From the IMG/VR virus record IMGVR_UViG_3300021399_000004, positions 105,339 to 169,338 of that record: 64,000 nt of DNA; one strand, 5' to 3'. The notes under the pieces were generated by a model. The model made no database searches. It was given only the letters and a program-made list of their open reading frames with translations, and was not told the origin of the DNA. A program made the translations under genes and the position numbers. Positions 19,445-55,600 of this stretch are shown in pieces (position 1 is the stretch's first letter; the number at the start of each line of letters is the position of its first letter). This DNA is from a virus.

Positions 19445-19468
19445 GGAATAGCCTCCTTTTTCGGTCGT

Positions 19469-27184: not shown

Positions 27185-27199
27185 TAGGAGGTGCGAACT

Positions 27200-31307: not shown

Positions 31308-32067
31308 TGACGATACCTTACGATTTTAGTTTGGTATACCAGTCTTTCTTGAAGATGTATGTGCTATTTACCCGGCAACATTAAGAGAGATCGCAGAAGT
31401 TGGTTATAGCAATTTCCAAAAGTATCTTGGATTATTAACTATGGAAAAACCTGCTAAATTTGATAACATGGATAAAGAACTCGGACAAATGTTTCGTGAT
31501 ATGACAGATTTTTAGTATTTTTTAAGTTTAACACTCTTAGATCCTACTTTAATCTCTACTATTTAGCAAGCTTTTAAATTTTTTATCCATGAAGATATAA
31601 TTTTTTTAATGGAGCCGCCGCAAATTATGGTTGGCCCCAAAGAAGAAAAACACATAATTGATGAACATAATTTCTATGATTTTTAGAGAATTTTAAAGCG
31701 GATGTATTTCATAGAGCAAGATGGCGAAGAAATTATTATTGAGGAGAGCGATGATCCAAAAGTGCGGCAATTAAAAATGAAAATGAAGGAGAATCGTGAA
31801 AAAGTTAGGCGCGCCAAAGCTAATAAAGCAGCTCGTGAAAAAAGTGATTTAAAATTTTCTGATTTGATTGGAAGTGTGACTTTAAACAACTGTAATCTAA
31901 ATATGAAAAATATTTAGGATATTACTTATTATGCTTTTCATGATTAGCTTAAGCGCATGGGTTGGCGTGATGCATTTAATATTAATCATTAGGCTGCTTT
32001 AGCCGGGGCTAAGATGAAAAAAGATGAATTAAAACATTGGATACGAACTATATCTAATGATAAATAA
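31294..32067 (+). CDS. Hypothetical tail-module protein
   Basis: ATG at 31294. Frame 1 was read by hand and has only TAG interruptions, including 31915, 31945 and 31990. TAA at 32065. Confidence 0.5.
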
Positions 32068-32083
32068 AAAGGGGGTAACTCTT

Positions 32084-33067
32084 ATGGCTGTAAATATTTT
32101 TGATAAATATGGTATAAAAGAGGTTGCCAATGTATATTTTGAGGCTCTAGACGATGATGAAGCCGCTGGTGTATACAAGGGCGATATCGTACTATTCTTG
32201 GATACTCTAAAAGTTTCTACCATAGAGACTACTGCTGAAAATACCGCGGCACAAGGTGGCTGGGGCAATCCTAAATTAATTCAGTGGGACTATGGCAAGG
32301 AAATCAATATTACTCTAGAGGACGCTTTAATGTCTCTAGAATCTTTACGTTTCATGCTTGGTGGCGCCATTAAGCGCCCTGGCGCTGACAGCAATAAAAT
32401 TTATGTACGGCATACTGAGGAAGTCGTATGTGGCTCTAATGGTGAAGTACGTCTCCCTGAAGACCACTTAACGGGTCAAATTCTTCATCCAGTAGCAACT
32501 TATGAACATCCTATTCGTCTTATTAACCTAACTACTGGTGCTCGTACTCAATTAGTAGCGGAGTCTAAGGGAGCGACTATTGCTTTAACTGGAGAAAAAC
32601 CAATTACATTTAAAAATCCTTCTATGATTAGTGGTAAAGACCATGAGCAAGTTACCGCTGCTAATGACCACATTCGTATTTTCTGGGAGGAAGAGATTTC
32701 TACGGAAGCAGGGAAAGAACTTGGAAGCAACAGCGGAGTTGTAGAAAATGCAGTCGAAGTTACTATTTCTCCTAGTACTTTCCCAGGCACTTATCGTGTA
32801 ATTGGTGATACATTCATACGTTCTGAAAAGACTGGTAAGAATGAAGCATTCCAGTTTATTATTAATAAAGCTAAGGTAGCTTCTGAGGTTACTCTAACTC
32901 TAGAAGCTGAAGGCGATCCTACCACTTTTGAGATGACTCTAAATGTATTACGCTCTACTAATGATGCTGGTAAGGACGAGATGATGAAGCTTGTTCGTTA
33001 TACTATTACAAAGGCGAGCAGCGGAATCGCTGATAATGACTATGGTTCCATACCTGGTGGATCTTAA
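32084..33067 (+). CDS. Major tail (tube) protein, putative; TAG-free
   Basis: ATG at 32084 after AAAGGGGG. 327 aa. Terminator 33083..33114 follows. Lies upstream of the tape measure gene. Paralogous to 33127..34038. Confidence 0.55.
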   Translation: MAVNIFDKYGIKEVANVYFEALDDDEAAGVYKGDIVLFLDTLKVSTIETTAENTAAQGGWGNPKLIQWDYGKEINITLEDALMSLESLRFMLGGAIKRPGADSNKIYVRHTEEVVCGSNGEVRLPEDHLTGQILHPVATYEHPIRLINLTTGARTQLVAESKGATIALTGEKPITFKNPSMISGKDHEQVTAANDHIRIFWEEEISTEAGKELGSNSGVVENAVEVTISPSTFPGTYRVIGDTFIRSEKTGKNEAFQFIINKAKVASEVTLTLEAEGDPTTFEMTLNVLRSTNDAGKDEMMKLVRYTITKASSGIADNDYGSIPGGS

Positions 33068-33082: not shown

Positions 33083-33114
33083 GAGGGCATATGAAAATAT
33101 GCCCTCTTTTTTTT
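33083..33114 (+). terminator. Intrinsic terminator after the tail tube gene
   Basis: GAGGGCATAT-gaaa-ATATGCCCTC followed by T8. Confidence 0.75.
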
Positions 33115-33126
33115 ATAGGTGATTTT

Positions 33127-34038
33127 ATGATTGATCAATATTTTGGTATAAAAGAATTATCAGAAGTTACCTTACGTGCACAAAGTCAAATGCAATTTGG
33201 CTAGCGTGTATTGGAGATTGGTGAGCCAGTTTTATATTTTGAAAATGTAAGTATGGCAGTTTTAAATGAAGGAAACCGTCCGATAATGGCTCGTGGTGGC
33301 TGGGCAAATATGCCACATGTAATTTGGGATAGTAGATCAGAAGTAACCTTCACTCTTTCTGAAGGCGTCATGTCTTCAGTTGGTATGGGTATATTACTTG
33401 GTACTAATATATTAACTGAGAAAGAGGAAGAAGAAGTTTTAATTAACAAGAGAATTGGGCCGCAAGAAGCAGAAGAATGCCCATGGAATAACCTTTAGTT
33501 AAATAATAATGAACCTTATCCAGTTGGTTTTATTATCCCAGAAATTCCAATTCCATATCCAAAGAAAAAAACATTCATATTTGAATATACAAGAGATACA
33601 ATTTAGAAAAAGGTATACGGTAAAATTTTTACACGTAATACTGATTTTGGACCACAATATTTTCTTGGTATTTATGAAGATAAAAACTGTAGTGTTCCGG
33701 TGAAAGAAGGCACAACTTATTTGGTAGACTACTACTATAAATATGAGGACAAAGCGCTAACTTATAGTTTACAGAAAGAGCGCTTTAATGGATTATTTTC
33801 TTTAGAAGGAAAATTCTATTCTAAAGATGAGAATGAGGGTAAAAATTATACAAATATAATTTATATGCCTCGTGTACGAGTTGTAAGTGATATAAATTTA
33901 CACTTGGGAGAAAGGGCGAATCCTACAGTTGGAGTATTTAATATTATTGGTCTACCTGAAACTACTGCAACTGGAAAAAATGGATTAATTGTAGATATAA
34001 GACGTTTGAACACAGACGTTGATGAAGAAATAATTTAA
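33127..34038 (+). CDS. Tail tube paralog / tail protein
   Basis: ATG at 33127. Frame 1 continues through TAG at 33202, 33496 and 33604 to TAA at 34036. Shares GIKE..G(D/E).VL(F/Y)...GGW.N....WD...E...TL with 32084..33067. Confidence 0.5.
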
Positions 34039-34068: not shown

Positions 34069-34095
34069 GTTTATGCGGAAAAGGAGATGAGGGGT

Positions 34096-37000
34096 ATGGC
34101 GGATACAGTTGTATCAGTTGGTGTTAAATTTGAAGCTTTGTAGAGTTCGATTAATAATTTGAAATCTATATTGGCAAATTTAGAGCCGAAAAGTGGAGGA
34201 TATAAAAATTTTTCTAAGGTAATAAATGGAATTATCAGTGATTTTTAGTCATTACAGGTAGCGATGAGCAAGCCCTTTATAGATTAGAAGCAATTTGATA
34301 ATGTTGATCGTCGTATAGACTTATTAACTGATAAAGTTAATGGTCTGTAGTTAAAGGCGACAGATTTAAATTTTAAAGATTTAAAGCTGAATGATTCTGA
34401 ATTAGCGAAATATAAAGAATTGGCTGCCGCCATTGATGGCGCAAAAACTGCTATTAAAGATTTAAAAGATGAAGAACAAAAAGCTTTTAGGCGCAATAAT
34501 GCGAGTTCATTGGAAAAATTCTTGCCTAATGCAGAGAATATGTCTTTAGACAAAATTATTAGTTAGTTAACTAAAGACGAGCAGACTATAGGGAAAAAAG
34601 TTAAATCAATGAATGAATAGCTTGCTACCATAGGCCAAAATTAGAATAAGCGTAGTTTAGCTGAAACATTGTCTACTGAGTCTTTAAAGACAGCTATGGG
34701 AGACTTATATAAAACAGTTGGTACGTAGACAGAGTAGGCTTATGTTAGAGGTGGCAGAGATAATCTTGTAAAATTTTTATCTGAATAGTTTGGATTAAGT
34801 GGCCCCGAATGGGATGACTTAATAGCAAAAATTAATGATAAGAAAAACTCAATAAAAGTTATTTAGAAAGAGATTAATAGCTTTTTTACAAATTTTACTT
34901 CTAATCAAAAAAATAGTCAGTTTGAAGCCTGGGGAAATGCAATTAATAGGACTCTCGCTAAATTTGATGATGGCAGTATTACTAACGTTGAAGATGCAAA
35001 AAAGAGACTATTAGAATTACAATCAACATTAACTGAACTATAGAATTTAAAAGCTAACGCAGCTTCTACTAGAACAAGGGTAGAAGGTATCGGAAAAGAA
35101 GGTACTGTCGAAAAAAGTGCTGTGGACAGCGCGACTGCTGCATTAGAAAAATATTATCAAGAGTTAGTTAAAATTCGTTAGGGACATATTCAAACTAATA
35201 CTACTCAACTTACGAGTCAATTATAGCAGTTAAAAGATGCTGCTGCGAACGCGAATGTTGAATTTTTAAAATTAGAGCGGACTAATCGTACATTAAGTTC
35301 TATGAAAATGACTGTCTCTAACTTTTTAGGGTTTACATAGGTTTTAAATTTAGTCAGACGGGCAGTCAGAGAAGCAGCTAATCATATTAAAGAATTAGAT
35401 AATGTTATGAATAGCATAGCTATTGTTACAAATATGACTACTGCTGACTTATGGGCTTAGGTAGATGTCTATACATAGATTGCACAAAAATTTGGTGTAA
35501 CGATTTAGGGTGCATATGAAGTTTCTAAAATTTATTATCAGCAAGGTCTATAGACAAATGATGTTTTAAATTTAACTAATGAAACATTAAAGTTGGCAAA
35601 AATTTCTGGTTTAGATTATGCAACAACAACAGACTATATGACCACAGCTCTTCGTGGTTTTAAAATGGAAATGTCTGATGCCGCGCATGTAGTTGATGTA
35701 TATAGTAACTTGGCTTCACATACTGCTGTTAACCAGCAAGAGCTTGCAGAAGCAATGACAAGAACAGCTTCTTCTCTTGAATCAGTTGGAACAAGTTTTG
35801 AAGAAGCCTCTTCTATGATTGCTACGATTGTAGCTGTTACTCGTGAAACTGCAAATAATATTGGTAGTGCTCTAAAATCAATTGCATCACGTTATGGTGA
35901 ATTAACTAAAGACCCAATGAAGTTAATTGATGAAGAGGGCGAAGCTGTAAGCTTCAATAAAGTAGATGAAGCTTTACAATCTGTAGGCATTTCATTGTAG
36001 GATTCTGACCATTAGTTTAGAAAGTTCACTGACGTTGTTAGAGAATTGGCGAAAGCTTGGGATACTCTAGATTCAACTCAACAGCGTTATATCGCAACAC
36101 AATTTGCAGGAAATAGACAGCAATCTCGTTTCTTAGCCTTAGTTAGCAACTCAGAATTATTTGAAGAGAACCTAGAATATGCAAATGCAAGTGAAAATGT
36201 TGGTACATTATAGGCTATTGAGAGCTTAGATACAGTTAGCGCTAAATTAAATCAGGTTTAGGTTGCGTATCAACAATTTTATACTACTATTGGCGCAGAA
36301 TCAGCTTGGAAAACTGTGCTAGATAATGTAACTTCTATTATTAATACTTTAAATTCTCTACCTAAAGTATTTGGGAAAATACCTACTGGAGCAATTGTAG
36401 TTATTTATGATATTATTACATTAGTTAAATCTATTGCATTAAGAGGCTTAACTAATATCACAAAAATAATGGTTGATACAATTACTCAGACGGCATTAGC
36501 GGCTAAAGAGAAGGCAGCCTAGACTGGCGGAAGCGCGGCAGATGAGGCGACACGTGAGGTAAATGCTCGTTCTTCAGCTATGGAAGCGGCCGGTCAGACT
36601 TTCTGGGGTAAATTTTTCCATCCTCTTTCAGAAATGAAAAATAGAATGAAAGCTGAATGGAATGACATACAAACATTCGGAAAAGAATATAATAATGCAA
36701 AGAACTAGTCCCCAGTAACTGAAAATAAAAAAGAGGAAGAAAGGGCTCAGGGAGAGTCTGCAAATGCTGCAGAGAATGCAAATGAACGTGTTGCAAAAGC
36801 GGAGCAAGACGCTGGAACAGCAGTAGCAGAAACTAATAAAACGATAGAAACGTAGAGTGAGGTTCTTTCTTCTGTTGGCTCAGCCGCTGAGACAACTACT
36901 CAATAGGTAATAAAAGGTGAACAAGAAAAACAAGAAGCGATTCAAAAAACTGCTGAGGTTGCTCAATAGTCTAATCCTAATGGAAATACAGCTTACAATC

Positions 37001-40000
37001 CGCCCTTAACCTTTGAGTCACCAAAAGAACAACAAGAAAGAAGGAGTCAAGAACTAGTGGCGACTCAACAGAGAGAAGCAAAGCAGGAGGCTATAAAAGA
37101 AAAATATATTAAGGATAATAATTTATATCCGTTACTTACAGCGCCGTCTGCGACACCTTTTTCTGCATTAACGTCTAATCCCGAAGCTATGAAATGGCTA
37201 TTAGCTTCTGAATATAATCCTATTCAAGATCCAAAACAGATTTAGGAAATGTTTGGTAAGATGGATAAAAGTATGCCAGGCTTTTTCTTTGGCACTGGTT
37301 TGTCTGGTAGTACGGCTACACCACTTGCAGGAAAAACCGATGCGTATGATATTTACTAGAGATGGCACGACTTTGCCGCAAAAATGACAGATCCAAAAAT
37401 ATTAAAGAGCTTTGACGAACTTGGTTTGTTTAGCCAAACAGAATAGTTCCTCGGACGAATGAGGGCTAAATATTCTGATGCAAAATATCCTCAATACCCT
37501 AACCCGGAGACAATACCAAAGTATTAGGAGGAGTAGAGAAAATTTTAGGATGAAATAGAGCCACAATTTAGACGATTTTTATCTGATAACGGGTTAAAAA
37601 ATGATTTTCCATTAAATGGTGGTTTAAGCGAGCTTGTTAAAAATATTTATGCTTTTTAGCAAGCACTCCAATATATTTCACAATAGCAGCCATAGACTCC
37701 ATCGCCTGCTTCTACTCCTACTCCTACTCAAGCTACTTAGGTACAGCAAACCGCTGAAGAAAATGCTGCACAAGGCAAGAGTAACTTAGCTGAGGCAAAT
37801 AAAGAAGTAGCAAATTCCGAGTAGGAAGTAACATAGGCTGTAAATGGCACAGTCGATGCTTTGAATAAACAGGGAGAAGCTATAGAAAATGTTACTTCTG
37901 CTTCTTCACAGCAGGCACTGAATTCTCCTGCTGACGCTTAGGCGGTATGGAACGAGATTGGGCCAACAACTCTTTTGAATATACAAGACTTGTAGACAGC
38001 TTTAGAGTTATTAAAAGAATAGAGCAATGTAGATATTAAAATTAGTAATAGCTCTTTAAATGCTGAAGAACTAGAAAAAGTTAAAGAAAAGATAGCTCAG
38101 ATTCTAGCGTAGAGCGAGCAGTTAAATAATTAGAAAATTATAATAACAATTGATTCTAAAGCGGTTGAATAGGTTGAACAATAGGCAAAATAGGCTAATG
38201 AAGAGTTACAAAAAATGGAAGATACTAGTTAGTAGGCAATGGCGGCAACTAGCTAGACAGGAAATTAGCAGATATTAAATAATCAATATCCTAATTAGGC
38301 TGCCGCGCGTGAAGCGGCGCTTGCTAGTGCAGAAGCATCTTTAAATAAGCTACATGCAGATGATGCAGCAGGTAATGGTCCTGCTACAGCAGAAGAACGC
38401 ATGCAATAGTTGCTAGCAATTGTTAATTAGATTAAAGCGATTGCTCCTGGGATGCTAAAGCCTGGGATCGACACTATGCAAGATGTTGATAAATTAGAAG
38501 AAACTCTAACTAAGATTATTAGTATATCAAAAACTAACGGTTCGGAAACTAAATTTATCTGGAGCGACTTAACAGTAACTAGGAATCAGTTAGATGAATT
38601 GGGTTATTCTTATGATGCTGCTAGCGGGAAAATTTAGGCTTTAAATTTTGCAAATTAGCAATATCAAATTACACAAGAATAGCTCCAATATTTAATCTAG
38701 AATCATATATCATCAGAATAGGCAATCCCAGCATTATTATAGGCACATGAGCAGGGTGTATTAAAACTAACATAGGCTGAAAAGGAACGTCTTGAAACAC
38801 TTATGGCCTTAAATGCAGAATAGGAGCGTTTAAGCAAGGGAGCGCCTGCAGGCGGCGCACCTGTAGGTGATGCTAATGGAGGCAATGAAAAGGCAGGATG
38901 GTGGGCTGCTCTTCGTGGTGCTGCAAAAGGTGGGCGACTCGCTTCTTACGGTAGCGCTGCACGTATGGCCGGAAATTTCTTAGGATCTATACAGGACACA
39001 TCCACAAGAGCAGGTCAATAGGCTAGCGGATTTTTTTAGGGAGCTGGCGCTATAGCTTCTATTGCTATGAATCCATATAATCCAGTAAACTGGATAATGG
39101 GTATATAGTCACTCTGGAGTGCAGTAGAAACTTTTAATGAAAGTGCAAAAGAAGAAGCGGAGCGCTTAAAGAAAGAAGCCGAAGAAGCACGAACTGCCGC
39201 AAAAACTGCAGCAACTGAAGTTAGAAGTTTAGAAGAAGGATAGAAAAAAATAAAGAAGTTAGCTGAATCACGTTATGACTCAGAAGAAGCTGCGCAAGAA
39301 TACTAGGATACGGTTGACTCATTAGTAGATCAATTTCCATAGCTAATTGCCGGGTATGATGCAATGAATAATGCTGTTATAACCGAAACTTCTCTTACTT
39401 TAGCGTTAAGCGAGGCTAGACGTGAATCAGCGGAGGCAACTTATGATGCTTTATAGGCTGAACGAAAGGCGGCAGATAAACGAGCTGAATCAGCTGAAAA
39501 AGAAATTATTGCTGCTAATGAATTAAGCCCTTATTCTGGTACGAATGACCAGCTTGCTGAGTTTGACTATGAACTTAGTAATTCATTAGCCAGGTATCTT
39601 GATTCTTCTAATGATTTAAAGGGAGCTTTATAGCAGTTAACTATAGAGAGACAAGGCAATGAAGATGTATCATGGAGCGATTTAATAAATCAGTTAGAGC
39701 CTGAGAATATAGCATAGGTAAATAATTTAAAGGAAAACGTCGCTCTTTTAATGGGGCTAGCAAGTGGCAGTGAAATTAGCAATGATTGGTTTAACTCTTT
39801 CATGGATTTATACTTGAGTCAAAAGGATGATACGAGTGCATTTAGTTCTCGCGCAGGAATTTTTGATATATTGTTTATGACTGATAAATAGTAGGATGAG
39901 TCACAATTAAATGATGTTATAAAGAACTTTAATAAGGCTAAATAGGAAAAAAAATATTCGGATTTAATTGATTATGGTAATCAACTTATTACGTTAATTC

Positions 40001-43000
40001 AAACTACTGAAGCTAGAGACCAAAACGAACAAGAGTGGCGTACTAATATTATTGGTGAAGTATAGTCAATATTAGAAGATGCTATTACATATCAAAAAGA
40101 ATCTGGAACTGCAGCTTCATTAACATAGGCTGAATTAGTTGCATGGCAACGTAAAAATATTAATTCTAAAACTTATGTTAAAGATAATGATGTCACAGCA
40201 TTTACAGATCTAGCGGCAATAGACTTATAGTAGTAGGCACAAGCAAGTACAAAATCAGTTTCTGATTTAGAAGCAGATTGGCTTGCATAGCCACCAGCGA
40301 TTTTAACTACTATACAAGAATTTTATGAAAAATTAGAAATAATAGATGCTGAAACAGGGAAACGTGCAAATATATTATTTGATCAATATTATAATGATAT
40401 GCAGCATTGGACCGGTACAGATTTGATTAGTAGATTTGGTCTTGACGAAGACGAAGATAAAGAAATCATTGAGTTATTGAGAAAGCGTTATACGGAATCT
40501 TCAACTACTTTTATTAATAATATAAATAAAAAAATAAATGACCTTGATTTTATAACCAATAAAGATGAGTATTTATTAACAACTATCGAAAAAGGCGGCT
40601 AGTAGATATCAGGTATATAGTACGATCTATATATTAGTGCTATAAATCAAGCACAAAAATTTGCTTAGCGCGGTTTAACTGCTACTGCTAATTCATACTT
40701 AGGTTAGACTTTATCATTATTAGGATGGATTGAAGAACATATTACTGATCCTGAACAATAGAATCAAATTTATGATATTTTAGTAAAAAATGAAGCTTTT
40801 ACAAGCAAAGAAGGCTGGGCTAAGGCTGCACAGGCTTTAACAGATGCCGGTTTTGATGATACAGGTTTAATTGAACAAGTGACGGCAGCTGGTAAAACAT
40901 TTTTAACAAATGTTTCTTTAAGTTTGCAAGCGGCTACATCTAGCTTATTTGAATCGCTAGAAGATTAGAGTAAAAATCTATCTAAAGCATTTTCTGGGAT
41001 GTCTGTTAAAGAAGCTAATGATTTTCTAGACACATTAAAAAATTATAATATAAATACGTTTAGCTGGTCTGATCTTGAATTAAATAGTAGTGGGAAATTA
41101 GCATTAAAATCGAGTAGCGTTAGTGGCTATAGAAATGCAGTATAGACATGGGTTGATAAATAGTTAGAATAGGCAGCAACTGCTAGAGATGATGTATATA
41201 GACAACTTTTTGACATTGATAATAGGGGTAATATTACTGGAAATATATCAGATAGAGCTTCTGAATTGATTCGACAAACATTGGGTACAGAACTTGAAAC
41301 AATTCCAGAGAATAATAAATAGTATATTGAATCATTAATTGAATATGGATTTTTAAGTGTTGATGATAAAGGTAAAGTATAGATAGCTAAAGAATATAAT
41401 AAAAATAACAATGTAGCAGAGTCAATTAAGGAGTTCAGAACTGCAACTGATAAATCATATAATGTCCTAGCTCAGGGCGCTCAAACAATTGTGGATATGG
41501 TTACTTATTCTGCAGAATGGGCGCAGGGTATTTATACTTCATTGTTTAGAAACTTCGGTGAAGGCGCAAATAAAGATTAGCTGTTGTTACAAGCTTTAAC
41601 TGGCACTCTTAGTTCAACTGACTATGATAAACTTACTGATTTTGATAAGGCAGGTATTAAAAATGCGGCTAGCGCTGCAGAACAAGCGGTTTAGGATTTT
41701 ATTTCTAAACGCGGCCAAAATATGCATGTGAGTGATTACGCCGCGGCACCACAATATATAAAGAAAAACTTAAAGTCGGCATTAGATAATTTAGGGAAAA
41801 GCTATGACAATTTTGAATTATATGTATTAAATTTAACAAAAGATTATACTTCAGAAATTCAAACTATCGTTAATAACTAGGTTTCTGCAATAAACTCTTT
41901 ATATGAGGTAGGCAATTAGGGTCTTTATGCTATTAATGGAAAAACTGCGATTTCAGCTGATGAAGCTGGTAAGTTAGCATCATTTTTAGGCTATAAGGGC
42001 GATGGAACTTTAAGAGAATATTTAGCTGCTCAAGGTTTAGTTTATAATTCTTTAACAAATGAGTTCGATATAACATCTGGTTTTATTACTGATGTTGTAA
42101 TTCCTGCTTATTAGAAAATTGCTGAAACTGCTAGTAATGAGCAAGAGAAGGAGCAAGCCCAAGCTTAGATTGATAAATATACTAATTTAATGAAAAAAAA
42201 TGGACAATCAGCTATCGCTACATTAATTAAAAATCGCAAAAATGTTTCTGAAGAAGATATATCAAATGTTGCTAATGCTTTTGAAGGATTAGACTATAAT
42301 CAAGTTTCAAGTGTTGTCCATGATGGCGTTCTCAATATCGGAGAATTGATAAGTTTATTTTCACAAATTGATAAGCAAACAGCTAAAGAACTCTATACTG
42401 CCTATGGGGCAGATCTGGATGAAAGTTTAGGTTTTTTAAATAAAGCGGTTGGCTATGTAGCTAATGGAACGACTAATTAGAGTGAAATTGCAGCTTTTAC
42501 TAGTGAATATTTAGACGTTGTAGGAGAAGTGCTCGAAGCAGGGAATTGGGTCTATGATAGCGTATTAAAAACTACGACGTTAAGCGGTGATGCTGCATAG
42601 AGATACATTTAGGCAAAGCGGGCTAAATTAACAAAAGAGTATGGTGAAGGAAACAAATAGTTTATTGATGAATATTTAAAGAATAATATCATAAGTTAGA
42701 TGGTTGATACTGGTACTTTAGTTAATGTTGCCACTGGCAAGAGCACTCCATTAGATTCTTATAAATTAGAAAAAAATTTAATGGCCGCATATAGCGCATT
42801 AGGGTATGGACCTGGCTTAGCAGCTGGTAGAGCTTCTTGGGCTAAGACAGCGTTATCAGAAGCATCAGGGACTAAACGAGTTGAGGCTTTAAAGAGCCTT
42901 TCAGAAGAATTAAGTTTACAAATTACTCCCGAACAATACCAGTAGGTATATGAAGCTCGAACTTAGTCATTGATGGATCTTCAAAATAGTATACATGACA

Positions 43001-46000
43001 TTGAAGCAGGTACTATAATAACTTCTTAGGCAAATGCTCAATTATTAGCTAAAGCTGGATATTAGATTAAAAATAATCAAGATGGTACATATCTAATAGA
43101 AACTGTTGGTGGCATGGTCGAAGCATATTATTTAATGTATTAGGAATTATCACAAGAAGCAAGTTCTACGACAGCCCAATTAAATTCAGTTTATGCAGCA
43201 ATGTTAAGTGAACGAGAAAAATCATAGAGTACTGCAATTGAAGCTTTATAGAATGCTGCTAAAATGTCTTATGAACAATTAGGAACATTATTAGCTTCTA
43301 TGGGTATGAAACTTGAGGATGTAGCCAAAAATTTTGAAGAGTATGGAATTAAATAGCTTGGTGCTGGGCAGATTCGTATTTATGATTTTGAGGCGTTCGC
43401 GGGCAAATTAAACTTAAGTAAGGATTCTGAAGAATATTTATCTGCTTATTCAACCTGGGTAGATTCTATGATTACTGTTAATAAAACAGTAGAAGAATAG
43501 ATTCTCTCTGAAGTAGATAAAATTAAAGAGGCAAAAATTGGTGATCAAATTAATGTCACTTATTTAGTAGATGCATTTGGTGAAGAACTTCTAGAACTTT
43601 TATTCGGTGAGAATAGTATTGCTAATGGTATTTTAACAGTTACCAGCCAATTCACACGTGAGTCTATGGTTGGTTTATACCATGCGCTTAAATCCAGTGA
43701 TAAAGTTAACTTTAACGAACGCGATTTGGCTAAATTTAAAGATGATTTTTAGACTAATTTTATTAACAAATTATCTGAAGGTATTAATAAGGCTTTAGCA
43801 GGAACGTTAACAAATGTTGAAATGCAAGAATTAATTGAAAATCATACTGGTATAACTTCAGATTATTTTATTAAAACTGAATAGGGCTTAAAACTAACAA
43901 TTGCTCAAGCTACAAAGTTATATTTCTAGTTAAAAGAGATTGATACTATTGCATCTAATATTGTATTAAAAGAATTAATTAAGAGTATGCAAGAAACTGA
44001 TTCTAATTATAAGACAATGGAATCTACTTTAAGAAGAATCGCTGAGTTACATGAATTAATTAATGCTGCAGATAGTGAAAAAAATAGTGCTAAAAAAGAA
44101 TAGTATGAAGAAGAATTGAATCTTGCGTTAGAAATTCAACGTGTACGCGCAACTACTCGTGATGATGAATCTTGGGATTTCATGAGTCGTAAAATGCCAG
44201 AAGTATTAAATAATCCATTTAATGCTCTCAAGAGCGTTGGCGCAATGATGACGAATTTCAGAAATTCTTGGAAAGAAACAACACAATATTTTGATTTAAA
44301 TAGCGGACGATGGACTAAGAGTAAGGGCATGATGGGCTTTGATTAGTTCTATAGTATGGCTAACATGATGAATGAACTAGCTCTTAAGACTGGAAATAAA
44401 TTAGTATTAGCAGGCCATACATTAGACGGTGGCGCCTAGGAATTTGCTAAATTAGTCACTTCTACATATAAGACTTTGGGCATGTTAGAAGATGGCTCAG
44501 CTGTAGTTAATTTAGGTGCAATTGGATTAAATTTTGAAACTGGCGCGGATCAAATGCGGCTGGGAATTGAAAATGGTCTTCAAGAGGCAGCAAAGGGTCA
44601 AGTACAGATGCTTGATGGAATGATCCAAGTTGTCGAGACTATGGCCGCTATGGAAGAGCTTGGTCAGATTGCTGGCGAAGATATAATGTTGCAATTACCG
44701 ACAATTGATTTCGATGCCGAAGAAAATCAAGATACTTTAGCCAAGATGAATGAATGGCGTCTAAAATATGTACAAAAATTTATTGAAGGTAGCGAAGAAT
44801 ACGATGAAGATGTAGCAAAAGCTGTAAATAACATTAAATATAAAAATGAAAAAGGCGCAACAATAGCATTAGCAGATATATTTAAGAAAGACATTGCAGA
44901 TTGGACTGAATTAGAAAAAGCAATAATGTCAGGCTATTATAAAGCTGCTAAATCAGGTAAATTAAATGATCAAAATTAGATCTGGGAAAGTATTCAAGAA
45001 GCCTTAGCAGGTGCCGGTCTTGACGGTCAAACAATTACTTTACCTCTTGGTGAGAATGGAACCGAGATTACTTATTTTTATAAAGATGGCTTTGCTATTG
45101 AAGTTACTAGTAACGGATTTAAAGTTGGCGATAAGACTTATCCTAGTGAGAAGCAGGCAATTCAGGCTGCTATTCTAAAAAATTTAGGGCAAGTTAACTT
45201 AGATGAGGTAACAGATGATAAAACTCCAGTTACTGGCACACTAAAATTGGGCAGTCAAGGTATCAAAGTTAGTTTTGACGATAATGAGCATGTTTAGTAT
45301 GAATATAATGGAGTAACTTCTAACTCTATTAATGGTTTATTAACGGAACTTTGGAAGCAGGATGAAACGAAAGGCGAGCTAACACTTGAAGAGTGGAAAA
45401 TTCAATAGGAGTTTACTATTGTTCCTGAGTTCAATAAGGATATTGAATTAACAAATGCTTAGAAAGCAAATCTGGCGGGAAAGTCGGCATTAAATTTACA
45501 ACAGGAGTGGGCTGATGCCGTAGAAAAAAATACAACAGTTCAATTTGAAGCTAAATATGGCTTTAAGTTAACCAACAGTAGTCAACTTACTGATGAAGCT
45601 TTAGAATAGCTATTAGCAGGGAATAAAATAACTGAAACTACAACAGATTTAACTGTTAAACTAAATTCTAATAGCTCACCTATTGCATCCGTGTTAGAAG
45701 CTGGTAAAACTACCGTCGATGTTACACTGAATGTAGCGGTAGTAGGCCCTGGTGCGGGCTTAGCTCAAGCCATGTTCGGAGGATAGACGACTTCTGAACA
45801 ATAGTAGCCACAAAAACCAGCGCCAGGTAAATAGCCTCCACCAAGTTAGCAGCCACCTTCTGGCGCAATATATGATACACCAGATTCATATCGTACTACG
45901 CCAACAGTTACTACTAAGTCTGTCGGTGTTGAAGGCGCAGTTATTGTTGGCACCTTTACTACTGAAAGTATGGTGGCTAATTTTGTTTAGCCAGATGGTA

Positions 46001-49000
46001 GTATTTCACAAACAATAACTATCCTTGGTGTACCAGTGGCTGTCGAAGGCGGAGCTACTAGCGAAGATGTAACATTAGTATATACTGGAGAAACAACTGG
46101 CTTTACATTATATAAAGGTGGCGTGCCGGTTGCATAGTTCACGACCGAACAAATTCTAACAGCATTGAATGTAGCTGACTTAGGTGAGTATTAGGGCCAT
46201 CGTCTTGTATATAATTTTTAGACAGAAGAATTTGAATTATGGAAGGGTAGTACTCGTATAACTGCTTTTTCTACAGAAGAAATTGCTTCTAAATTACTCC
46301 TTGATAAAAATGTCACGCCTCTATCAAGAAATACTGTATTACAATACAGAGGCGAGACAGAAGGCTTCCAAGTTATTGATCAAACAACTGGTTAGCCTCT
46401 TGTAATTTTGGGTACTGGCGAAGGAAAAATTGAAGAAGTTGAAGGAACTATAGTTAAAGATGCTGATGGTAATGTTCACTTTGAATTTACTGATGATACT
46501 GGTACTATATACACTGTAGATTTATCTCAATTTTCTGGTTTAGTAGGCACTGGCGCTACAATTGATCCTACAAAATGTAAAGCGAAATTTAATAGTGACA
46601 CTGGCACAATAACATTTTCATATGAAGCCGGTGGCGAAACTATAAGTGAAGAAGTACCAATAACTGGTGTTAATTTAACTGGTACTGCTGCATTAACTGA
46701 TGCAAAAGTTACAGAAATAAAGGCAGCTATCGCTAATGCTAAAGGGTTAACTCCAGACGAAAAATTAGCATTGTTAAATGCATTAGGTGTAGATAGTTCA
46801 GATTATACAATAGATTTAGGAACAGTGACGCCAATCGCAACGGTAGGAACTCCTGAATTTTACGGCTTATCTGAAGGTGATAGGTTCTTAGCGAGTATGA
46901 CTTCTGCTAATTGGACAGAAAGTGCTGCTTAGAGTCATGTGGCAAGTAAAGTATATAGTCCGTTAAATGGCACTTTATCACATGAGCTCACTCCAGAAGC
47001 AACAGCCGCCTATCATGATATTGAAACAAAAGTTAGAAATGGACAAACTCTAACATCCACAGAAAAAAAGTTTTTAAACTATTTAACACATTCACAACGG
47101 CAAAATTCACATTATAAAAATGAAAAAGGTGAAAACGTATTCGTAAGTAAACAAGCTCAAGATTTATTAAATGCTAACGCTCTTATTGAGGAAGAATTAA
47201 TGACATCTTTAATTCCAGCTTTAGCTGGCCTAACAGATATTAATTATGATAAAATTCTTTCTTTAAGTCAAGCTTTAGGAACAATTGCTATGTCTGGTAT
47301 GGATATTCAAAAAATTAATTGGCAAGACATAGTTACAAATTTAAGTGCATTGTCTGGTATTAATATTGCTCCTAAAGCGCTACAAGATCTAGGTTAGCTT
47401 GCAGGCGTGATGGCTTTAATCAGCGGTGGCACCGTAAAAAACCAATTTGGTGTGGAAGTACAATCAAACGGTTTACCAGCATTGGCTACTAGTTTAGGTA
47501 ATTTATCTAATATTTCTTATCCAAAAATTAGTGAAGGTTTAAATAGTATTGCCACTGCATTAAGTAAAATATCATCTGTTTTATATCCAGTTGATAATAA
47601 AGTACCTTTTAAGTCTACTTAGACTGATACCACTAATACTAAAAAATAGGAATTATAGGCACTCTTAGATGGCGACTGGAGTGAGCTTGATCCAAGTCAA
47701 TTAGAATCAGCTGTTGAGGATATGAATCATATTCTAGATGAATAGGCCGCTGAGGATACATCATTCTCTGACCGTTTTTAGACAGCTACTGAGAAGTTTA
47801 CAATAAATGCAAAAATGTTTAACCATATGATTCAATTAGCTAATGATGCACTTGGTTCTACTCAAATGCCACAAGGTTTAATTGATCTCAAAGGTATGAT
47901 TTTACAGTTAGTTGGTATTGCTCCAGATACTGAAGAAGCAAAGCATTTAACTGATTTATTCAAAGGTAGTGTAGAAGATTTCGCTAATACGCCAATCGGA
48001 CAAATTAATGCTGGCTTTAATGAGTTATAGAAGTCAATTGATAAATTATCTAGTGCAAACTTTAACGGCGGTTCTAGTGGATTAATTGACGTAAGAGGCG
48101 CTATATCATTATTAGCAAAAGCTAGTTTTGGTGCAGTAGCTAGTGGATTAAGTAGTATAAAGAGCGCTTTAGCAGGATGGAGCTTCCCACAAATACCAGC
48201 CTCTTCTGGCGGCAATACGGCTTCTTCTAATGCAAGTCAATCTGCTTAGATGCATACTGCTGTAGATGCAAAAGGAACAATTGGCCCCGCACAAGCAACT
48301 GGCACTCTAATGGGCGAACTCGGCCCTGAACTTTATGTATCAGGTGGCCGGTATCATATCGCTGGTCAAAATGGTGCAGAATTTGTTGATTTACCTGATG
48401 ATGCAATTGTCTTTAATCATTTACAAACTAAGAAATTATTACAAACTGGCGTGGCTGGACGCGGAACGGCTATTACTAATGAACGTACAGCAGTAGCCTA
48501 TGCAAAAGGCACTGGCCCTGCGATGGCTAGCGCAAGTGCTGTATTGGCTACATTAAAAGAATTGCGTGATGCATGGTAGCGTTTAACTGATTTACCACTA
48601 AGTTAGCTAGCTGGCATGGGCGGCGGCGGTGGTGGCGGCGGTGGCAGCCAATTCACTAAAGACCTCGAACGGTGGTTTAATATACTTTAGAGAATTGCAC
48701 GCCTTGAAAAACTTATTACGCACGAAGAACAATTATAGTCAAAATTAGAGAATGATCGTTTAATTCATGGAAATTAGATATATGCTAGTTAGCAGCGAGA
48801 GGCTCAAGCGTTACAGTAGACAATCAATGAAAATCGTGAATTACTTTCTTTATAGCAAGGTCGTTATCAAGAGCGTATTGACTAGCTCATGCGAGATAAT
48901 GCATTCTTCCAACGTGTATATACTATTGATTAGAATACCGGAGCTATTTAGTTAAGAAATAGAGAAAATACACCAGAAGGTGAAGCAATTACATATAATG

Positions 49001-50922
49001 GTAGAACTTATGATGATGCGTATGCTATTTTAGCTGAAATTGCTGGTGTTAATCCAAACACAAATGAACCATTACATAATGCTAAAGAACAACTAGCTAT
49101 GCTACGCGAAGTATTTGGTGATGCATTAGTAGATTAGTATACTACTTATGATTCTTCTGGCAAGAAGATTACAAGTGATGAAGAGCGTGTACGCGCTTTC
49201 TTTGACATGGCTGATGGATTAAAAACTGAAGTAACTACTTTATAGGATACTTTAGAAGAAACCGAAAATGGTATTTTAGAGAATCAACAAAAATTATCTG
49301 AAATTCTTTAGAAATATGTAGATAACTAGTTGGCGGTGGAATAGGAGCTTACTGAGGCTATTGAATCACGTGAATAGGCTGCAATTGATGAAGCATAGAA
49401 AGAACGTGATGCATTTAGTAAGCAATAGACAGCATTAATTGATGGTTTAAGTGCATAGTTAGATAAAGAGCGTAAAATGTATGAACGGCAACAAGCCGGA
49501 GAAGATTTAAATAAAATGCGGCGTTAGCTAGCTATTTTATAGAGATCTGGCGGCTCTCAATCTCAAATTCGTTCTTTGCAAGATCAAATCAATTCTGCTT
49601 CTTAGGAAGCATATTTTACTGCACAGCAAGATCAAATTGATGCAATTAAAGAAGCCTCTGATTTATAGTTAGAGCGTATGGATACTCAAATTGAATTAAT
49701 GACAGAAACATTGGAATATTAGAAAGAAAATGGATTATTCTGGCCCGAAGTTACTTAGATTATGCAGCAAAGTCCAGAAGAAATTATGAATTTTATTTAG
49801 ACTTATAAGCCTAATTATCGTAGTGATTCTGAGTTGCAAATTGAAGAGAATTTACGTCAATTAAGGAATATTGTAGAGCAATGGACAACAAGGAGAGATG
49901 ACCCGAATGCTCTTGACGTTAATGGCAATATTACTGAAACTCCAAATGACGTCTATTCAATGTATAGTAACTGGTATACAAATACAGCATATCGTCAATT
50001 TAGTACCGCATTGTTCTCTGAGAATTATGCTGAACGAGATAAATTAAATTAGGATGCTATTAATGCATTCTACGAAACTTGGAATAGAACAGGCGATTTA
50101 CGGTCTGCACAAGACGCGGCTGCCGCGGTATTCTAGTCACATGAGGATAGATTGAGTGAGAGCGATAGGAATAATCATGCATGGTAGATTGAGTAGAGGA
50201 ATAATCCTCCTGGTGGCGGAAGCAGTGGAAGCAGTGACTCTGGAGCTTCAGATAACAATGCAACTCTCAAGGTAATCGTATATGTAGATGGAGAAATAGA
50301 GTCAAGAAAAGCATATGTATATGCTGAACCTTTTATTGTCATGCCAAGGTTCTTCGGGATGCCTCGTGAAGGGTATGATGTTAGTATTACTCCATCAGAA
50401 GGCTTTACAATTTTACCTGGAGAGACAAAACAACTTACAGTTAAGTATACTAAAAATGCAACAACTTCTTATTCGACTGTTACAGAAACACCGCCTACGG
50501 ATGAGTTAACTCCTCATACATTCCAGGGGCAAAAAGATAACACCATTGCATCAAAAGGAATAGGATATACTGCAACATAGAGTTATGCTAGTGGTAATAG
50601 TGATTATAGAACTCGATTAAATAATTTACTAAATCGTCTCAATTCTTCTTCAACATCGTTCGCACCAGACTTAAATAATTTAACAACAGGTATTGTTATG
50701 CAATCTTTCCTCAACTCTTTAGCGTCTTTAGATAATTTTTCTACTTCAATGGAAGTTTTGCGACAATTGCAACAAGAGGCTGGTAATTAGGTCACTAATA
50801 TAGTGAACGTAAATAATCCTGTTATCAGAGATGAAGATGATATATAGAAAATTTCTGATACTATTGAATAGAAATTATTATCAATAGCTAAGAAAACTGG
50901 AGCTTACATGAACGTGCGTTAA
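34096..50922 (+). CDS. Tail tape measure protein, 5,608 aa
   Basis: ATG at 34096, 8 nt after AAGGAGA. All 16 frame-1 track ORFs from 35593 to 50580 belong to it. I read every intervening line in frame 1 and found about 180 TAG, with no TAA or TGA until 50920. TP901-type TMP core at about 35400-36150 (LKLAKISGLDYATTTDYMTTALRGF...ATQFAGNRQQSRFLAL). C-terminal GELGPELYV...IVFNHLQT motif. Confidence 0.85.
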
Positions 50923-50935: not shown

Positions 50936-52591
50936 ATGGCTATGAATACATTAATAGGGCAAGAAATTCCCTAGACCGGACCTAAACGAACTTAGGTCTG
51001 GCAAGCGACTCATTATGAGGGAGGCAATCGCCTCCCTCTAATGAACCGCTCTTTTATTAGTTTTAATTATGATAATCATTGGTGTGAAGATATGGGAGTA
51101 ATCGCTACAATAGATGGAGATATGATGTCAAAATCTATTTACGGCAATTTTAATGATGTTGTAAGCGATTTAGAAGGAGTCGATGGCCAATTATATTGGA
51201 GCACGCATTTTACTAATAATACTTTATCTTTTACATTATCTACTGACGCCGTGACTGAGCGCCAATTGGATGAAATTAAAAGGTGGTTAAAACCGGGAAA
51301 GATTGCCCCTTTAGTACTTGCAGAGAATCCTAATCGAGAAATTTTAGCTCGTATTAGTGATAATCCTCCTGAATATAATATGTTGCCTTTTGAACAAAAA
51401 GAAAAAATTAAGCTTGGCGGATATGAATATACAACAAGCACAACGGTATATCGGGGAAGCTTTTCGGTGACTTTTATAATGGATGAACCGTTCTGGCATG
51501 CTAAAAAAAATATTCTAGATATGGATAAGATTTTATATTGGAATAACGCTAATGATAATAGAAGTGAAATTATTAAAGATAAGGATGCATTAAAAATTAT
51601 TTTAGAAGATGGTATCCCATTTGGCTCTGTTATGTTAGAGAATGAAAATATGTTATATGGCGTTCCAAAGAAATATAAAGAAGCATCGAATGATCCGGGC
51701 ACTCTTCCAATTGTCGGAAAAGCAAAGGTCGGCTTAGCGAAGTTAGGCAGCTGGTTCCATTCCTATGACAATATAGAAAATTTCAAATTTTTAGGCGGGG
51801 AAAGCCAAGCTCAATATTTTTATTATCCTGGAACTGCGCCTTCCGCGCCGACTCTTAAATTTAAACTAACTCCAGTTTTTGATTTAAATGGTTATATTAC
51901 AATGCCAAATAATTCTTATTCTAGCCTTAATAATAAAGGATATAATACAATCACAATTGAAGGGTATAATAAAAAAGAATTGCATTTAACAACGCCGACA
52001 GTTTATACTGCTTATAATTAGGCTATTGCTATTGTGAAGTAGGCTGTTGAAGGGCAAAGTAATATTAATAATAAAATTAAAATTGATGCTGGCGAATTAC
52101 GTTAGCTATTAAGAGATGGCGTTAATCATTGGGCTGTACGAAGTTATGCAATTGCAACTTTTGATAGAATAAAAAGTACGGCTCAAGAGGGTGAAGATTG
52201 GTTATCTTCATTAATCGGAGAAATGAAGGGATTCTTTACAGATGACTCAAATGAATTGACTTCTGCATCTTTTGTCATTAATTGTGAGACTGGAGAAGCT
52301 CTTGGCACTTTTAAATATCGAGTATATAATGCGGCTTCTACTAAGAGTAATAAATTTGAGATTACAGAGCATACCGAGCAAGTTGGAGATATGATCTTAT
52401 CTAATAATTTTATTATTGAGGAACGTAATTACTTCTCAGAAGATGGCTTTATTCGCGCGTGGAGTAATGAGCATAAAAATTACAGCCATCGTATTTATCA
52501 TGATTTTGGAGTTATGTCTAATGGAGAATTAGTAGAATCAGAAATGGGGCTGCAAGATTTCTTAATTGAGTATAGATATTATTACTATTAA
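50936..52591 (+). CDS. Distal tail protein (Dit-like), 551 aa
   Basis: ATG at 50936, 7 nt after AAAGGAGG. Frame 2 continues through TAG at 50972, 50993, 52019, 52040 and 52103 to TAA at 52589. SFISFNYDN...DMGVIA is a Dit-type N-terminus. Lies directly after the TMP. Confidence 0.6.
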
Positions 52592-52610
52592 GAAAAAGGA
52601 GATGAAAGGA

Positions 52611-55600
52611 ATGAATATAGAGGAAAGAAAATATGAATTGTCTGTATGGACAATTTAGGATGAATACATTGTTACTTTGACTAAAGGGGCTGGTCAGGTA
52701 CAAAAGGCAGAATTTAAGAATAATGTTGATGGTACTATGAGCCTTAATTTTGAGATTCCTATGTATATTAGGAGAAATGGAGAACGAATTGAAAACCCCA
52801 TTTGGTGCAATACAATTAATGGTGTAATAATGGCAGACCTCAAAAAGATTAAATTAATTTTTAATAAACATACTGACGATGAAGCAATCTATGAATTTAT
52901 TATTACAAAAGTAACTGAATCACATGAAAAGGATATTTTAACCTGCAAAGTTGAATGTGAAGGATTAGCTTTCCATGAGTTAGGTAAGCGAGGATATAAA
53001 ATTTCTTTAACAACAGATGATTATATTAATGATGTAAATGATTGGTTTCATAATGTACCAAAAGAAGAATAGACAATTTTATTAGCCAATCCTGACGCCG
53101 ATTCTGTTACATTAACTTTTTCTTCTTTAGTTGCTAGTAAAAGATATTATAGCGTTGGGCAGTCTCCTACAACTGGGTAGGTTATTGATCCAGAACCAGT
53201 AGATGGTGAAACTTATCATCGTATTATAAAATTAACTGATTTGAAACCGGGCACTCAAATTAATATTAACAGTGAAGATGGCACACTTGCTCGGCCATGG
53301 ATTTTAATAGATCAAACTGATAATAGCATGATTACTTGCGCGCAAAGCAAACGCGCATATAATGAGACAATAGTAGTTCCTAGTGAATATGTTGTTAATA
53401 ATATTAAGAAAATAATTACAAAAGCAATTTTAATTGTTTAGTTTAGAGAAAATGTTGGCGGCATGACAATAAATGATGCTTTTGTTACAAAAATGATTAA
53501 TCAGAGCTATGGGCCACTTCCGCAGGCAAATATTGAATACTGGTTAAATAAATTTTTATCTCCATATCCAAGTTATGGTGTTAATTTATTATAGCCTAAT
53601 GTATCTTATGATAACATAACGGCTGGGATGAGTGTGCCAATCAATCCAAGAAAATGGTACTATACAATAAGAATGAATTGGGGCGGATTTTCAGAATATA
53701 CTGTTAGATAGCCTAATAAAATTTATGAAGAAGAATATGTTGGCTCATGGGAATACGACAGTGAGAATGAAGCAATTTATGCTAATGCAATGGTCGATAA
53801 GCAAGAAAAATATCGTTTAGTTGATCTACAAGAAAGCAATATTTATAACCTAACGCAAGACCTTGCAAAAACTTTTGGCGTGTTTTGCCGCTATGAATAT
53901 TTATATGATTAGCAATATCATATTATTGGGCGCTTAATTGTATTTTATAATAGTTTTTTTGAAGAACAGAATGGTTATTTAGATATAACTTATCCATATT
54001 CTACAGATACAATTACTCGTGAAATGGACGGCAGCGAAATAACTACTAAATTATTTGTAAAGCCAGTAAGTTTAGAAGAAAATGAAGAAGTAGATATAAT
54101 GAATTTAGATACTAATAAAACTTTAGAAGATTATATTCTTAACTTTAATTATTTAAAAACAATTGATTCGCTTACGGAAGAATAGAGACAAGGCATAGAT
54201 AATTTTGAAGTTTAGATGAGACAATTGAATAAAGAAATTATTAAATATAGTGAAATGGAAATTAGCTTTAATGAGCCATTGGTTGATCTTGAAGCAAAAC
54301 GAACAATAATTGAAAATTCTATCAATGAGAATACAAAAGCATTAGAAGAAATAGCACGTTCGCGCGCGGCATTAACATAGACAGGATACTTAACTGTTGG
54401 TTATGGTTTTGTCCTTTCTGAAGAAGATGACCCCCATTTTGCAGAACGCGGTAAATCTAACAAAATGCCTGAATTAACAATTATTACTGCAATGGAAGGG
54501 CAAGCAGAATTTGATGATTCGGCCTTTTAGGATGATGCAGTTGTTAGGTTTTCTTCGTCCTCAGTTACTGGGAAAAAAGAATATTATTCAGTTGGCGAAA
54601 GCCCAGTGGCTGGTCAAGAGATTACTAATGTTACACAAGATGCAGATCATACTCATTATATTATTAAGATGACTAAACTAAAGCCTGGTGAATAGGTTAT
54701 AGTAAATAGCCAAGAGGCTGGAACTGCTCGGCCATGGATTTTATTAGATTAGAGTAATAAATTAATAGCGTGTTCATAGGGTCTTGTATCTAATTATGAA
54801 GTTATTACAGTGCCAGATAAATATGTTGTAAACTCTACTACAAATTCTATAACAGGAGCAACTTTAATTATTCAGTATTAGGAGATAGAAAATGGTATCC
54901 CTAAAGATTCTGCTGAAATAATAAAAAAGGTCAACGTTGCAGTATATCCTTATAGATGGGAACTTAAGTTAAAAAATAAAGGAATACTATCTGATGTAAG
55001 CGTTTCGACATTATAGAGTTTAAATAATACAATGTTTAGCAATGAAGCTCTGAGCATAAAGCCAGTTGTTAAATTAGGGGTATATTATAACTATGATTCT
55101 AGAACAAAATTATTGGAAGATGAAATATAGAATTTTTAGATTGAATATGACGATTATGGGAATCCAATTCGTTTATATAATATAATTTTACCATATTCAC
55201 ATGCTGTATTGGATGCAAATGGAAATAATGTTTTAGATTCTGACGGAAATCCAGTATATGAGCCGCTAGATTTACATAAAAAAGTTTATCTTACATATAC
55301 TTATTGCCCTTCTCTTTACTTCGAGAAAGCTCGTATTATGCTAGAAAACAAGCAAGCAAAAGATATTAATGAGTTATCCGTTACTGAAGCTACTTTATCT
55401 AAACTAAAAAGTATAATTGATACCGTAGTAAAATATAAGGAAAATAGATTATCTCAGAAAGAAAGTTTGCTTGAAGATTTTGAGCATTTAATGGGGCCGG
55501 CGTTAAGAGAAGGATATTGGATGCCAGAAGATTATAAAGATTATGGTGACAGATATAATACAATCATGCCTATTAGTACTTATTATTATGATAATTGGGT

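Follow-up and report, generated by a model that had tools for sequence, protein, structure and literature searches.

A 5,608-residue tape measure protein read through TAG codons is one of many giant tape measure proteins in an SPbeta-like phage clade

Long tape measure proteins and the window locus

The longest tape measure protein (TMP) described is gp96 of the Thermus phage P23-45 (and its equivalent in P74-26), which has 5,002 residues and goes with a tail of ~800 nm (PMC10770324; 10.1101/2022.12.01.518664; PMC10034513). Phassvirus TMPs, at 3,149–3,209 amino acids (aa), are reported to be typical of siphovirus morphology (PMC10607447); we recomputed the TMP of phAss-1 as 3,150 aa. Here we describe a TMP gene of 5,608 codons at positions 34096–50922 of a 64,000-nt stretch of viral DNA (IMG/VR record IMGVR_UViG_3300021399_000004, positions 105,339 to 169,338). 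This whole stretch is called the window. Coordinates are those of the window unless stated otherwise, and the tail genes and protein segments described below all lie on the + strand.

The window TMP resembles P23-45 gp96 in size class, in its membrane segments and in belonging with a siphophage-type, non-contractile tail, which for the window phage is predicted. The two proteins differ in content. P23-45 gp96 has an N-terminal virion RNA polymerase (DFDGD motif) and a metallopeptidase, whereas the window TMP has no such motif and no enzyme family at all, and its N-terminus is an ordinary TP901-type core, not a two-barrel RNA polymerase of the P23-45 type. P23-45 infects a thermophile and uses the standard code, whereas the clade to which the window phage belongs apparently infects gut or rumen Clostridia and the window gene reads TAG as glutamine (Gln), judging from the alignments described below.

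Among cultured phages, those of the SPbeta-like group share with the window the order of structural genes and the PHROG families of the capsid protein, tube protein and their neighbours. The TMPs of the Psychrobacillus phage Perkons (2,439 aa) and of the Enterococcus phages VRE9_3/EF1 (2,673 aa) have a homologous TP901-type core, 28–31% identical to that of the window (31% for Perkons), but they are half the window length or less and are written in the standard code. The Perkons and VRE9_3 proteins align in the core only and lack conserved blocks B–D, the GELGPE motif and the poly-Gly run; in these two phages, moreover, the tube and TMP genes are separated by several small genes, a place taken in the window phage by a paralogue of the tube gene. 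In phAss-1 and the other Phassvirus members the late genes, including that for the TMP, are TAG-recoded as in the window phage. The capsid proteins of phAss-1 and the window are 36% identical and the TMP cores 27–28%, yet only the core aligns, and Phassvirus TMPs reach 56% of the window length without the C-terminal module (C-module) that carries the GELGPE motif. True orthologues were found in IMG/VR and ENA, on contigs of 23–190 kb, as a clade of giant TMPs that share the four blocks and their order, as well as the succession of tube gene, paralogue and TMP gene. Examples are IMGVR_UViG_3300031994_000011 (6,244 aa) and 3300032038_000011 (5,995 aa, standard code). Members of this clade differ from the window TMP in spacers that vary by up to thousands of residues, and some are written in the standard code or have the gene interrupted by group I introns with HNH endonuclease genes.

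A single tape measure gene read through TAG

The gene at 34096–50922 spans 16,827 nt and consists of 5,608 sense codons, 178 of them in-frame TAG, followed by a TAA stop. No internal TAA or TGA occurs across the 5,608 codons, compared with 123–644 in the other five frames of the same interval; in 200 shuffles of the sequence, the longest run free of TAA and TGA averaged 126 codons and reached 263 at most. GC content by codon position and the preference for purines at position 1 follow the same pattern in all eleven 1.5-kb blocks of the gene. Read from the sequence, a Shine-Dalgarno motif AAGGAG lies at 34081–34086, 9 nt 5′ of the ATG at 34096, and the predicted N-terminus, MADTVVSVGVKFE..., is akin to the starts of homologues (MAEGIVIDVS..., MNEIRVPVKLE...). 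An earlier note on this DNA had proposed one frame running from a Shine-Dalgarno site and ATG to TAA once TAG is read, and that proposal was borne out on each count. Under the standard code the same region yields ORFs (open reading frames) of 174 aa at most, and annotation on that basis cuts the gene into dozens of pieces. We regard it as confirmed that 34096–50922 is one real TMP gene, translated through TAG.

The amino acid specified by TAG was examined by aligning the window TMP and ten other recoded homologues against six standard-code homologues, counting only locally well-aligned positions. Of 1,253 comparisons, 532 paired TAG with Gln (42%, where the background is 5.9%, an enrichment of ~7-fold), as did 73 of 156 for the window gene alone; the overall range was 42–47%, or 7–8-fold. 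On this alignment evidence TAG encodes Gln here, which corresponds to genetic code 15. Reading through TAG also makes the late module at 19783–62744 contiguous, including the portal gene and the gene in the position of the terminase. The density of TAG is highest in the TMP gene, at 31.7 per 1,000 codons, while TAG is entirely missing from the capsid gene (27191–28267), the unannotated ORFs on either side of it (26570–27184 and 28332–28769) and the tube gene (32057–33067); from this distribution, recoding appears to be inversely related to protein copy number. The related phAss-1 has two tRNA-Sup-CTA genes, and GenBank places its genome in the "Caudoviricetes code 15 clade" (also PMC10607447).

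Upstream of the late module, window positions 1–19700 hold short ORFs on both strands; the larger ones that we checked have no in-frame TAG, and a few end in TAG. An ORF-poor stretch lies at ~14,700–18,000. The region fits early genes on the standard code.

The domain content of the product is that of a TMP. Its TP901-type core, within conserved block A at 35392–36420 (aa 433–775), matches TIGR01760 over aa 433–775 (E=4.8e-34; 117.9 bits against a cutoff of 28.8) and PF10145 over aa 463–672 (E=2.7e-30; 106.2 bits against a cutoff of 33.2). Eleven PHROG families match the N-terminal part, ten of them annotated as TMP and matching within aa ~85–1000, and the core region is 46–73% identical to that of relatives. 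Such a core had been reported near the N-terminal quarter; it is there, although in the first seventh of the protein. By domain content and position together, we assign the ORF as a TMP.

Two further segments stand out in the N-terminal third. The first, at 36358–36465 (aa ~755–790), is strongly hydrophobic and transmembrane-like, and is the sole Kyte-Doolittle 19-residue peak above 1.5 in the TMP. The second, at 38878–39135 (aa ~1595–1680), forms the Gly/Ala-rich start of block B, as seen from sequence and hydropathy, and is kept in relatives. The earlier note had singled out a hydrophobic Gly-rich segment at 38880–39120; its Gly-rich character is confirmed and conserved, but its hydrophobicity is only moderate, and the strong peak is the one at aa ~755–790.

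Closer to the other end, a GELGPELYV...DAIVFNHLQT motif occupies 48313–48429 (aa 4740–4778), ~830 residues before the C-terminus. It forms invariant columns in two alignments (A1 and A3) and is invariant in the clade. The motif, present as claimed, had been called usual for TMPs; that description is unsupported because the motif is missing from every other TMP tested (TP901-1, Perkons, VRE9_3 and phAss-1), and it is clade-specific. A 66-aa region containing it had no tblastn match in 50,697 INPHARED phage records. The poly-Gly run noted at 48616–48645 (aa 4841–4850) consists of exactly ten Gly and is conserved in homologues.

Beyond aa ~1000, searches of Pfam, PHROGs and NCBIfam gave no matches, and PDB sequences gave none for aa 800–5608; a PDB sequence search with the C-module profile returned nothing significant. 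Likewise no match was obtained by tblastn against INPHARED for aa 1401–2900 or aa 4201–5608, no homologue by a protein database search with aa 3601–4640, and no match by an IMG/VR scan with aa 2401–3300 as a single sequence. The TMP contains one Cys and 0.7% His, and HExxH, HxH and DxDGD motifs are absent from its whole length; this composition and the missing motifs make concealed domains of a metalloenzyme or RNA polymerase less likely. SPbeta YomI is a TMP with transglycosylase and peptidase domains. Lysin domains of this type are not present in the window TMP, in which Pfam, NCBIfam and PHROGs revealed no lysin family.

Aligned with its relatives, the protein resolves into four blocks that are colinear and conserved in all members, separated by spacers that vary from tens to thousands of residues. 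Block A (aa ~1–840) comprises the TMP core and the transmembrane-like segment. Block B (aa ~1600–1830) begins with the Gly/Ala-rich segment and continues as a charged helical stretch. Block C (43723–44865; aa ~3210–3590) is 27–33% identical to relatives and colinear with them, and block D (47953–50235; aa ~4620–5380), which contains the GELGPE motif, the poly-Gly run and long helices, is 36–48% identical to 52 proteins. Conservation is seen again at the very end of the TMP, where the last ~40 residues agree with the C-terminal end of the homologue consensus. Among relatives the spacers range from 39 to 1,839 aa between A and B, from 768 to 3,024 aa between B and C, and from 384 to 2,077 aa between C and D. 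Compared with a 3,539-aa relative (L027), the window TMP is longer by ~670, ~550 and ~730 residues in its successive spacers, and aa ~3890–4620 are missing in L027. Length is gained in the spacers.

Clade-wide gigantism, predicted tail length and competing explanations

Profiles of the N-terminal core and of the C-module were run against IMG/VR, and for 41 contigs the two matching loci were joined across overlaps that were identical. A single ORF spans both anchors in 37 of the 41, with lengths of 3,539–6,244 aa and a median of 4,955. Thirty of these 37 are TAG-recoded, each with 23–195 in-frame TAG, and the remaining seven are uninterrupted in the standard code (4,146, 4,363, at least 4,537, 5,129, 5,158, 5,612 and 5,995 aa). 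Homologues of 5,608 aa or more number seven of 37, and those longer than 5,002 aa 18 of 37. In other databases, the C-terminal 1,008 aa of the window TMP match 52 proteins at 36–48% identity, and the C-module profile matched 4,305 of 1.84 billion cluster representatives, 2,795 of them at E<=1e-10. Among the best 150 of these matches, nearly all long proteins carry the C-module at the C-terminus and measure 2,000–5,744 aa; PF10145 was found near the N-terminus in both of the two that were tested. The few matches to genomes were to metagenome-assembled genomes of Clostridium, Acutalibacteraceae, Lachnospiraceae and Eubacteriales, and the hosts of the clade appear to be gut or rumen Clostridia. 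The predicted host of phAss-1 is likewise among Clostridia (PMC10607447).

Giant size is thus common among the relatives, which exceed the window TMP at up to 6,244 aa. The window protein is one of many giant TMPs of an abundant, uncultivated SPbeta-like clade; it stands slightly above the published length record of 5,002 aa and is itself surpassed by relatives. A statement that it is several-fold longer than known TMPs does not survive comparison with P23-45 (5,002 aa; PMC10770324), phAss-1 (3,149 aa; PMC10607447) and the 18 homologues above 5,002 aa. In the literature collection searched, which is incomplete, we found no paper on TMPs longer than 5,002 aa or on the TMPs of this clade.

Two phages allow the relation between TMP and tail length to be calibrated. 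The siphophage Perkons has a tail of 380.6 ± 16 nm (PMC13245101) and a TMP of 2,439 aa, or 0.156 nm per residue, and P23-45, with a TMP of 5,002 aa (PMC10770324) and a tail of 800 nm (10.1101/2022.12.01.518664), gives 0.16 nm per residue. From these two calibrations, 5,608 aa at 0.15–0.16 nm per residue would reasonably predict a tail of ~0.84–0.90 µm, falling to ~0.72–0.77 µm should the ~800 residues of least helical character lie outside the ruler.

The evidence is best explained by a tape-measure mechanism of the ordinary kind, taken to an extreme. We give a probability of roughly 0.75 to the ORF being the single TMP gene of a ~140-kb siphophage with an SPbeta-type structural module and TAG read as Gln in its late genes. 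A few copies of a mostly helical TMP would be anchored through the C-terminal module in a tail-tip complex (genes at 50936–62744), and the YomU-type tube protein (32057–33067) would polymerise around them. Because polymerisation would stop when the TMP N-terminus is reached, tail length would scale with TMP length and would be set by the spacers. On infection the TMP would be ejected, and by analogy its hydrophobic segments at aa ~755–790 and ~1595–1680 may help to form a channel through the envelope. Unlike the gene-level observations above, copy number, tail length, ejection and channel formation are drawn from siphophage biology, the two calibrations and analogy. More tentatively, and at somewhat less than even odds, the TMPs of the clade may set a tail of ~0.85 µm here and ~1 µm in the member with 6,244 aa, equal to or above the Thermus record, and may do so in mesophiles without the frameshifting chaperone pair G/GT, with the tube paralogue in that role and more than 150 recoded stops translated.

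The phage has been assembled more than once, as identical or near-identical public contigs indicate. ENA ERZ28612961 SHIW14-1_SAMN02144230 scaffold_147 (129 kb) is 100% identical to window positions 22084–43067, a base-by-base comparison that takes in only the first ~9 kb of the TMP gene, and the public gene call on this scaffold also has 5,608 residues. Another sample (ERZ12302852) contains a contig with 99.93% identity to the window over 6.1 kb, a span that takes in the initial 2.2 kb of the TMP gene; a contig of JGI 3300002641 is also identical to the window, and the longest public contig with an identical tube protein has 140,511 bp. Apart from the poly-Gly run, all that Tandem Repeats Finder reported in the TMP gene was a single weak array of 46 nt, and protein self-BLAST detected no internal repeat in the TMP, nor in its beta-rich stretch.

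Several points weigh against the proposed extreme ruler. At the level of assembly, these are the limited reach of the scaffold_147 comparison and the possibility that the two full-length assemblies were built from shared reads. At the level of translation, ARAGORN found no tRNA, suppressor or other, in the 64-kb window of a ~140-kb genome, and 178 TAG codons in a single ORF require near-complete reassignment, with ~99% decoding per codon; the yield of full-length protein would be 17% at 99% per codon (0.99^178) and 0.01% at 95%. At the level of structure, the secondary structure of aa 800–4600 is read from a crude propensity scale only, and 600–800 residues (aa ~3640–4260 and ~5390–5500) look beta-rich on a low-confidence basis. 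Folded domains would not lengthen the tail by 0.15 nm per residue, and the tube lumen may be too narrow for them. Cell-wall-binding domains in the C-modules of homologues point to roles beyond measuring, and since no canonical G/GT chaperone is present, assembly may deviate from the lambda model.

These structural points lead to the alternative that survives best: a genuine single TMP that measures only in part, in which the C-terminal modules, together with the beta-rich stretch and the variable spacers, would be folded cargo or domains for the tail tip or cell wall, on the lines of the P23-45 virion RNA polymerase or of lysin domains found in other TMPs, and the tail would be clearly shorter than 0.8 µm. 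We consider it unlikely. The beta-rich stretch, at 45013–46875 (aa ~3640–4260), has its second half in the variable C–D spacer and was recognised from AlphaFold2 and residue propensities. Its TAG-free segment aa 4101–4278, modelled without an alignment, came out mostly as strands at low confidence (mean predicted local distance difference test score, pLDDT, of 57.7), and the crude propensity scale, which assigns ~51% helix overall, marks aa ~3900–4200, 4400–4500 and 5400–5500 as non-helical. On these models aa ~3640–4260 are probably not a helical ruler, and the idea of a fully length-determining protein put forward in the earlier note is unlikely to hold. The same alternative is favoured by the lack of aa ~3890–4620 in the 3,539-aa relative and by homologues of the C-module (P0002, P0017, P0018, P0024 and P0027) with extra PG_binding_1, SH3_3 or choline-binding repeats near the C-terminus, as well as one with Hint/intein-type domains; these additions suggest that the C-terminal end meets the cell wall and is a hotspot of domain swapping. 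A precedent exists in P23-45 gp96, a TMP that contains an active RNA polymerase and a metallopeptidase (PMC10770324).

Cargo is nevertheless hard to reconcile with a protein that beyond its core has no recognisable enzymatic family, catalytic motif or relative of solved structure, and that has so little Cys and His. P23-45 keeps its 0.16 nm per residue in spite of the fused enzyme, and the Perkons ratio of 0.156 nm per residue fits too (PMC13245101). The confidently modelled part of the C-module is, moreover, long helix: for the homologue P0024, which is 39% identical to aa 4725–5370, AlphaFold2 predicted helices of up to 121 residues with pLDDT values of 80–90 and low-confidence hairpins at the GELGPE motif. 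Foldseek searches with the C-module model returned only non-significant coiled-coil matches.

A polyprotein or recent fusion, whose product would be cleaved post-translationally to give an ordinary-sized TMP (~3,000 aa) and a separate tail-tip protein (~2,300 aa), is decidedly improbable. TMP processing is known in other phages (lambda gpH, T5 pb2), and in two ENA scaffolds (L004 and L005) the homologous region is present as separate ORFs that break near aa 3,280. Fusion of a TMP gene with its downstream gene, considered on the strength of these standard-code scaffolds, which are colinear with the whole ORF, was rejected because the breaks fall on runs of N, with duplicated flanks in L004, and so represent scaffold gaps, and because gap-free IMG/VR contigs have the one ORF in 37 of 41 cases, the seven in the standard code among them. 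The four split cases, all standard-code, break elsewhere, at insertions of 1.1–4.4 kb within or near the N-terminal core, and the proposed junction near aa 3,280 showed neither a start signal nor a conserved boundary. An artefact of misassembly, repeat expansion or undecoded TAG with many short products, to which the standard-code ORFs of 174 aa or less and the lack of a suppressor tRNA in the window would lend themselves, is effectively refuted by the absence of TAA and TGA from 16.8 kb compared with hundreds in other frames, the alignment of TAG with Gln, the four-block colinear homology to uninterrupted standard-code ORFs, the lack of repeats, the agreement of other assemblies (identical or 99.93% identical over the parts compared), the mending of neighbouring late genes by the same read-through and the tRNA-Sup-CTA genes of phAss-1.

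Flanking genes and what the clade offers

The TMP gene lies in a structural module that we assign to the SPbeta type from its family matches and gene order. On the identical public contig, precomputed Pfam annotation gives the order YonD_N, YonB, YomW, YomV_2nd and YomU_Tube (PF27290, PF27364, PF27256, PF27211 and PF27173), followed by the TMP; PHROG matches and gene order agree with Enterococcus phage VRE9_3. Relatives of the capsid protein occur in phAss-1, in Enterococcus phages of ~140 kb and in SPbeta-like Staphylococcus phages. A local copy of Pfam gave no match for the genes neighbouring the TMP gene.

The tube gene (32057–33067), free of TAG as stated above, encodes a tail tube protein of the SPbeta YomU type (phrog_2729, E=3e-48; PF27173 YomU_Tube precomputed on the identical public protein P0053), with weak matches to solved tail tube proteins (E~0.08). 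It is followed at 33091–34038 by a paralogue (BLASTP against the tube protein, E=2e-8 and 4e-5 for the two ends; phrog_2729, E=4.7e-16), tube-like at both ends and acidic at the C-terminus. Only 57 nt separate the paralogue stop (34038) from the TMP start (34096), and between the tube genes and the TMP gene no ORF of at least 100 aa overlaps in another frame as a G/GT pair would. The order of tube gene, paralogue and TMP gene is kept in all 14 relatives checked. The absence of a G/GT pair at this place, which the earlier note had pointed out, is therefore upheld and extends across the clade, and a tube paralogue occupies the position; from its sequence, it may be an assembly chaperone or a specialised tube subunit.

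Directly 3′ of the TMP gene, an ORF of 551 aa with 5 TAG (50936–52591) is a candidate distal tail protein gene by position only; it has no family match in PHROG or local Pfam, and relatives have a gene of 448–713 aa in its place. Next comes an ORF of 3,392 aa with 56 TAG (52566–62744), in whose product four copies of a ~130-aa domain (YYSVG...ARPW(I/V)L(I/V)DQ) and a short collagen-like Gly-X-X run can be seen by eye. It is presumably a tail-tip or fibre protein.

In standard-code relatives, the TMP gene and upstream structural genes are interrupted by RF00028 introns and HNH homing endonuclease genes. Group I introns (RF00028, 70–88 bits) flank the HNH endonuclease genes that interrupt the TMP region of L005, and intron/HNH loci were located at positions 1091–1305, 1684–1876, 4674–4965 and 5905–6153 of that scaffold and at 3243–4109 of L004. 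Relatives in IMG/VR interrupted in this way are 3300028048_000059, 3300021399_000107, 3300028048_000130 and 3300045988_158685. The insertion sites recur in the TMP core, at places that correspond to residues ~485 and ~674 of the window TMP; Rfam gave no match in the window itself. In two relatives (3300031994_000011 and 3300031994_000013), the tube gene aligns in two pieces ~0.7–0.8 kb apart, probably owing to another intron.

With 178 TAG codons in one essential ORF, the window gene is a demanding case of stop reassignment and sets a bound on decoding efficiency per codon. Should tail length follow TMP length by this rule, the phage and its clade would rank among the longest-tailed viruses known, and would come from the anaerobic gut or rumen, not from a hot spring. 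The clade is a natural length series of 3,539–6,244 aa, with fixed blocks and variable spacers, that could be used to test the scaling of the ruler, and could reveal which parts of a TMP measure and how very long tails assemble without a frameshifted chaperone.

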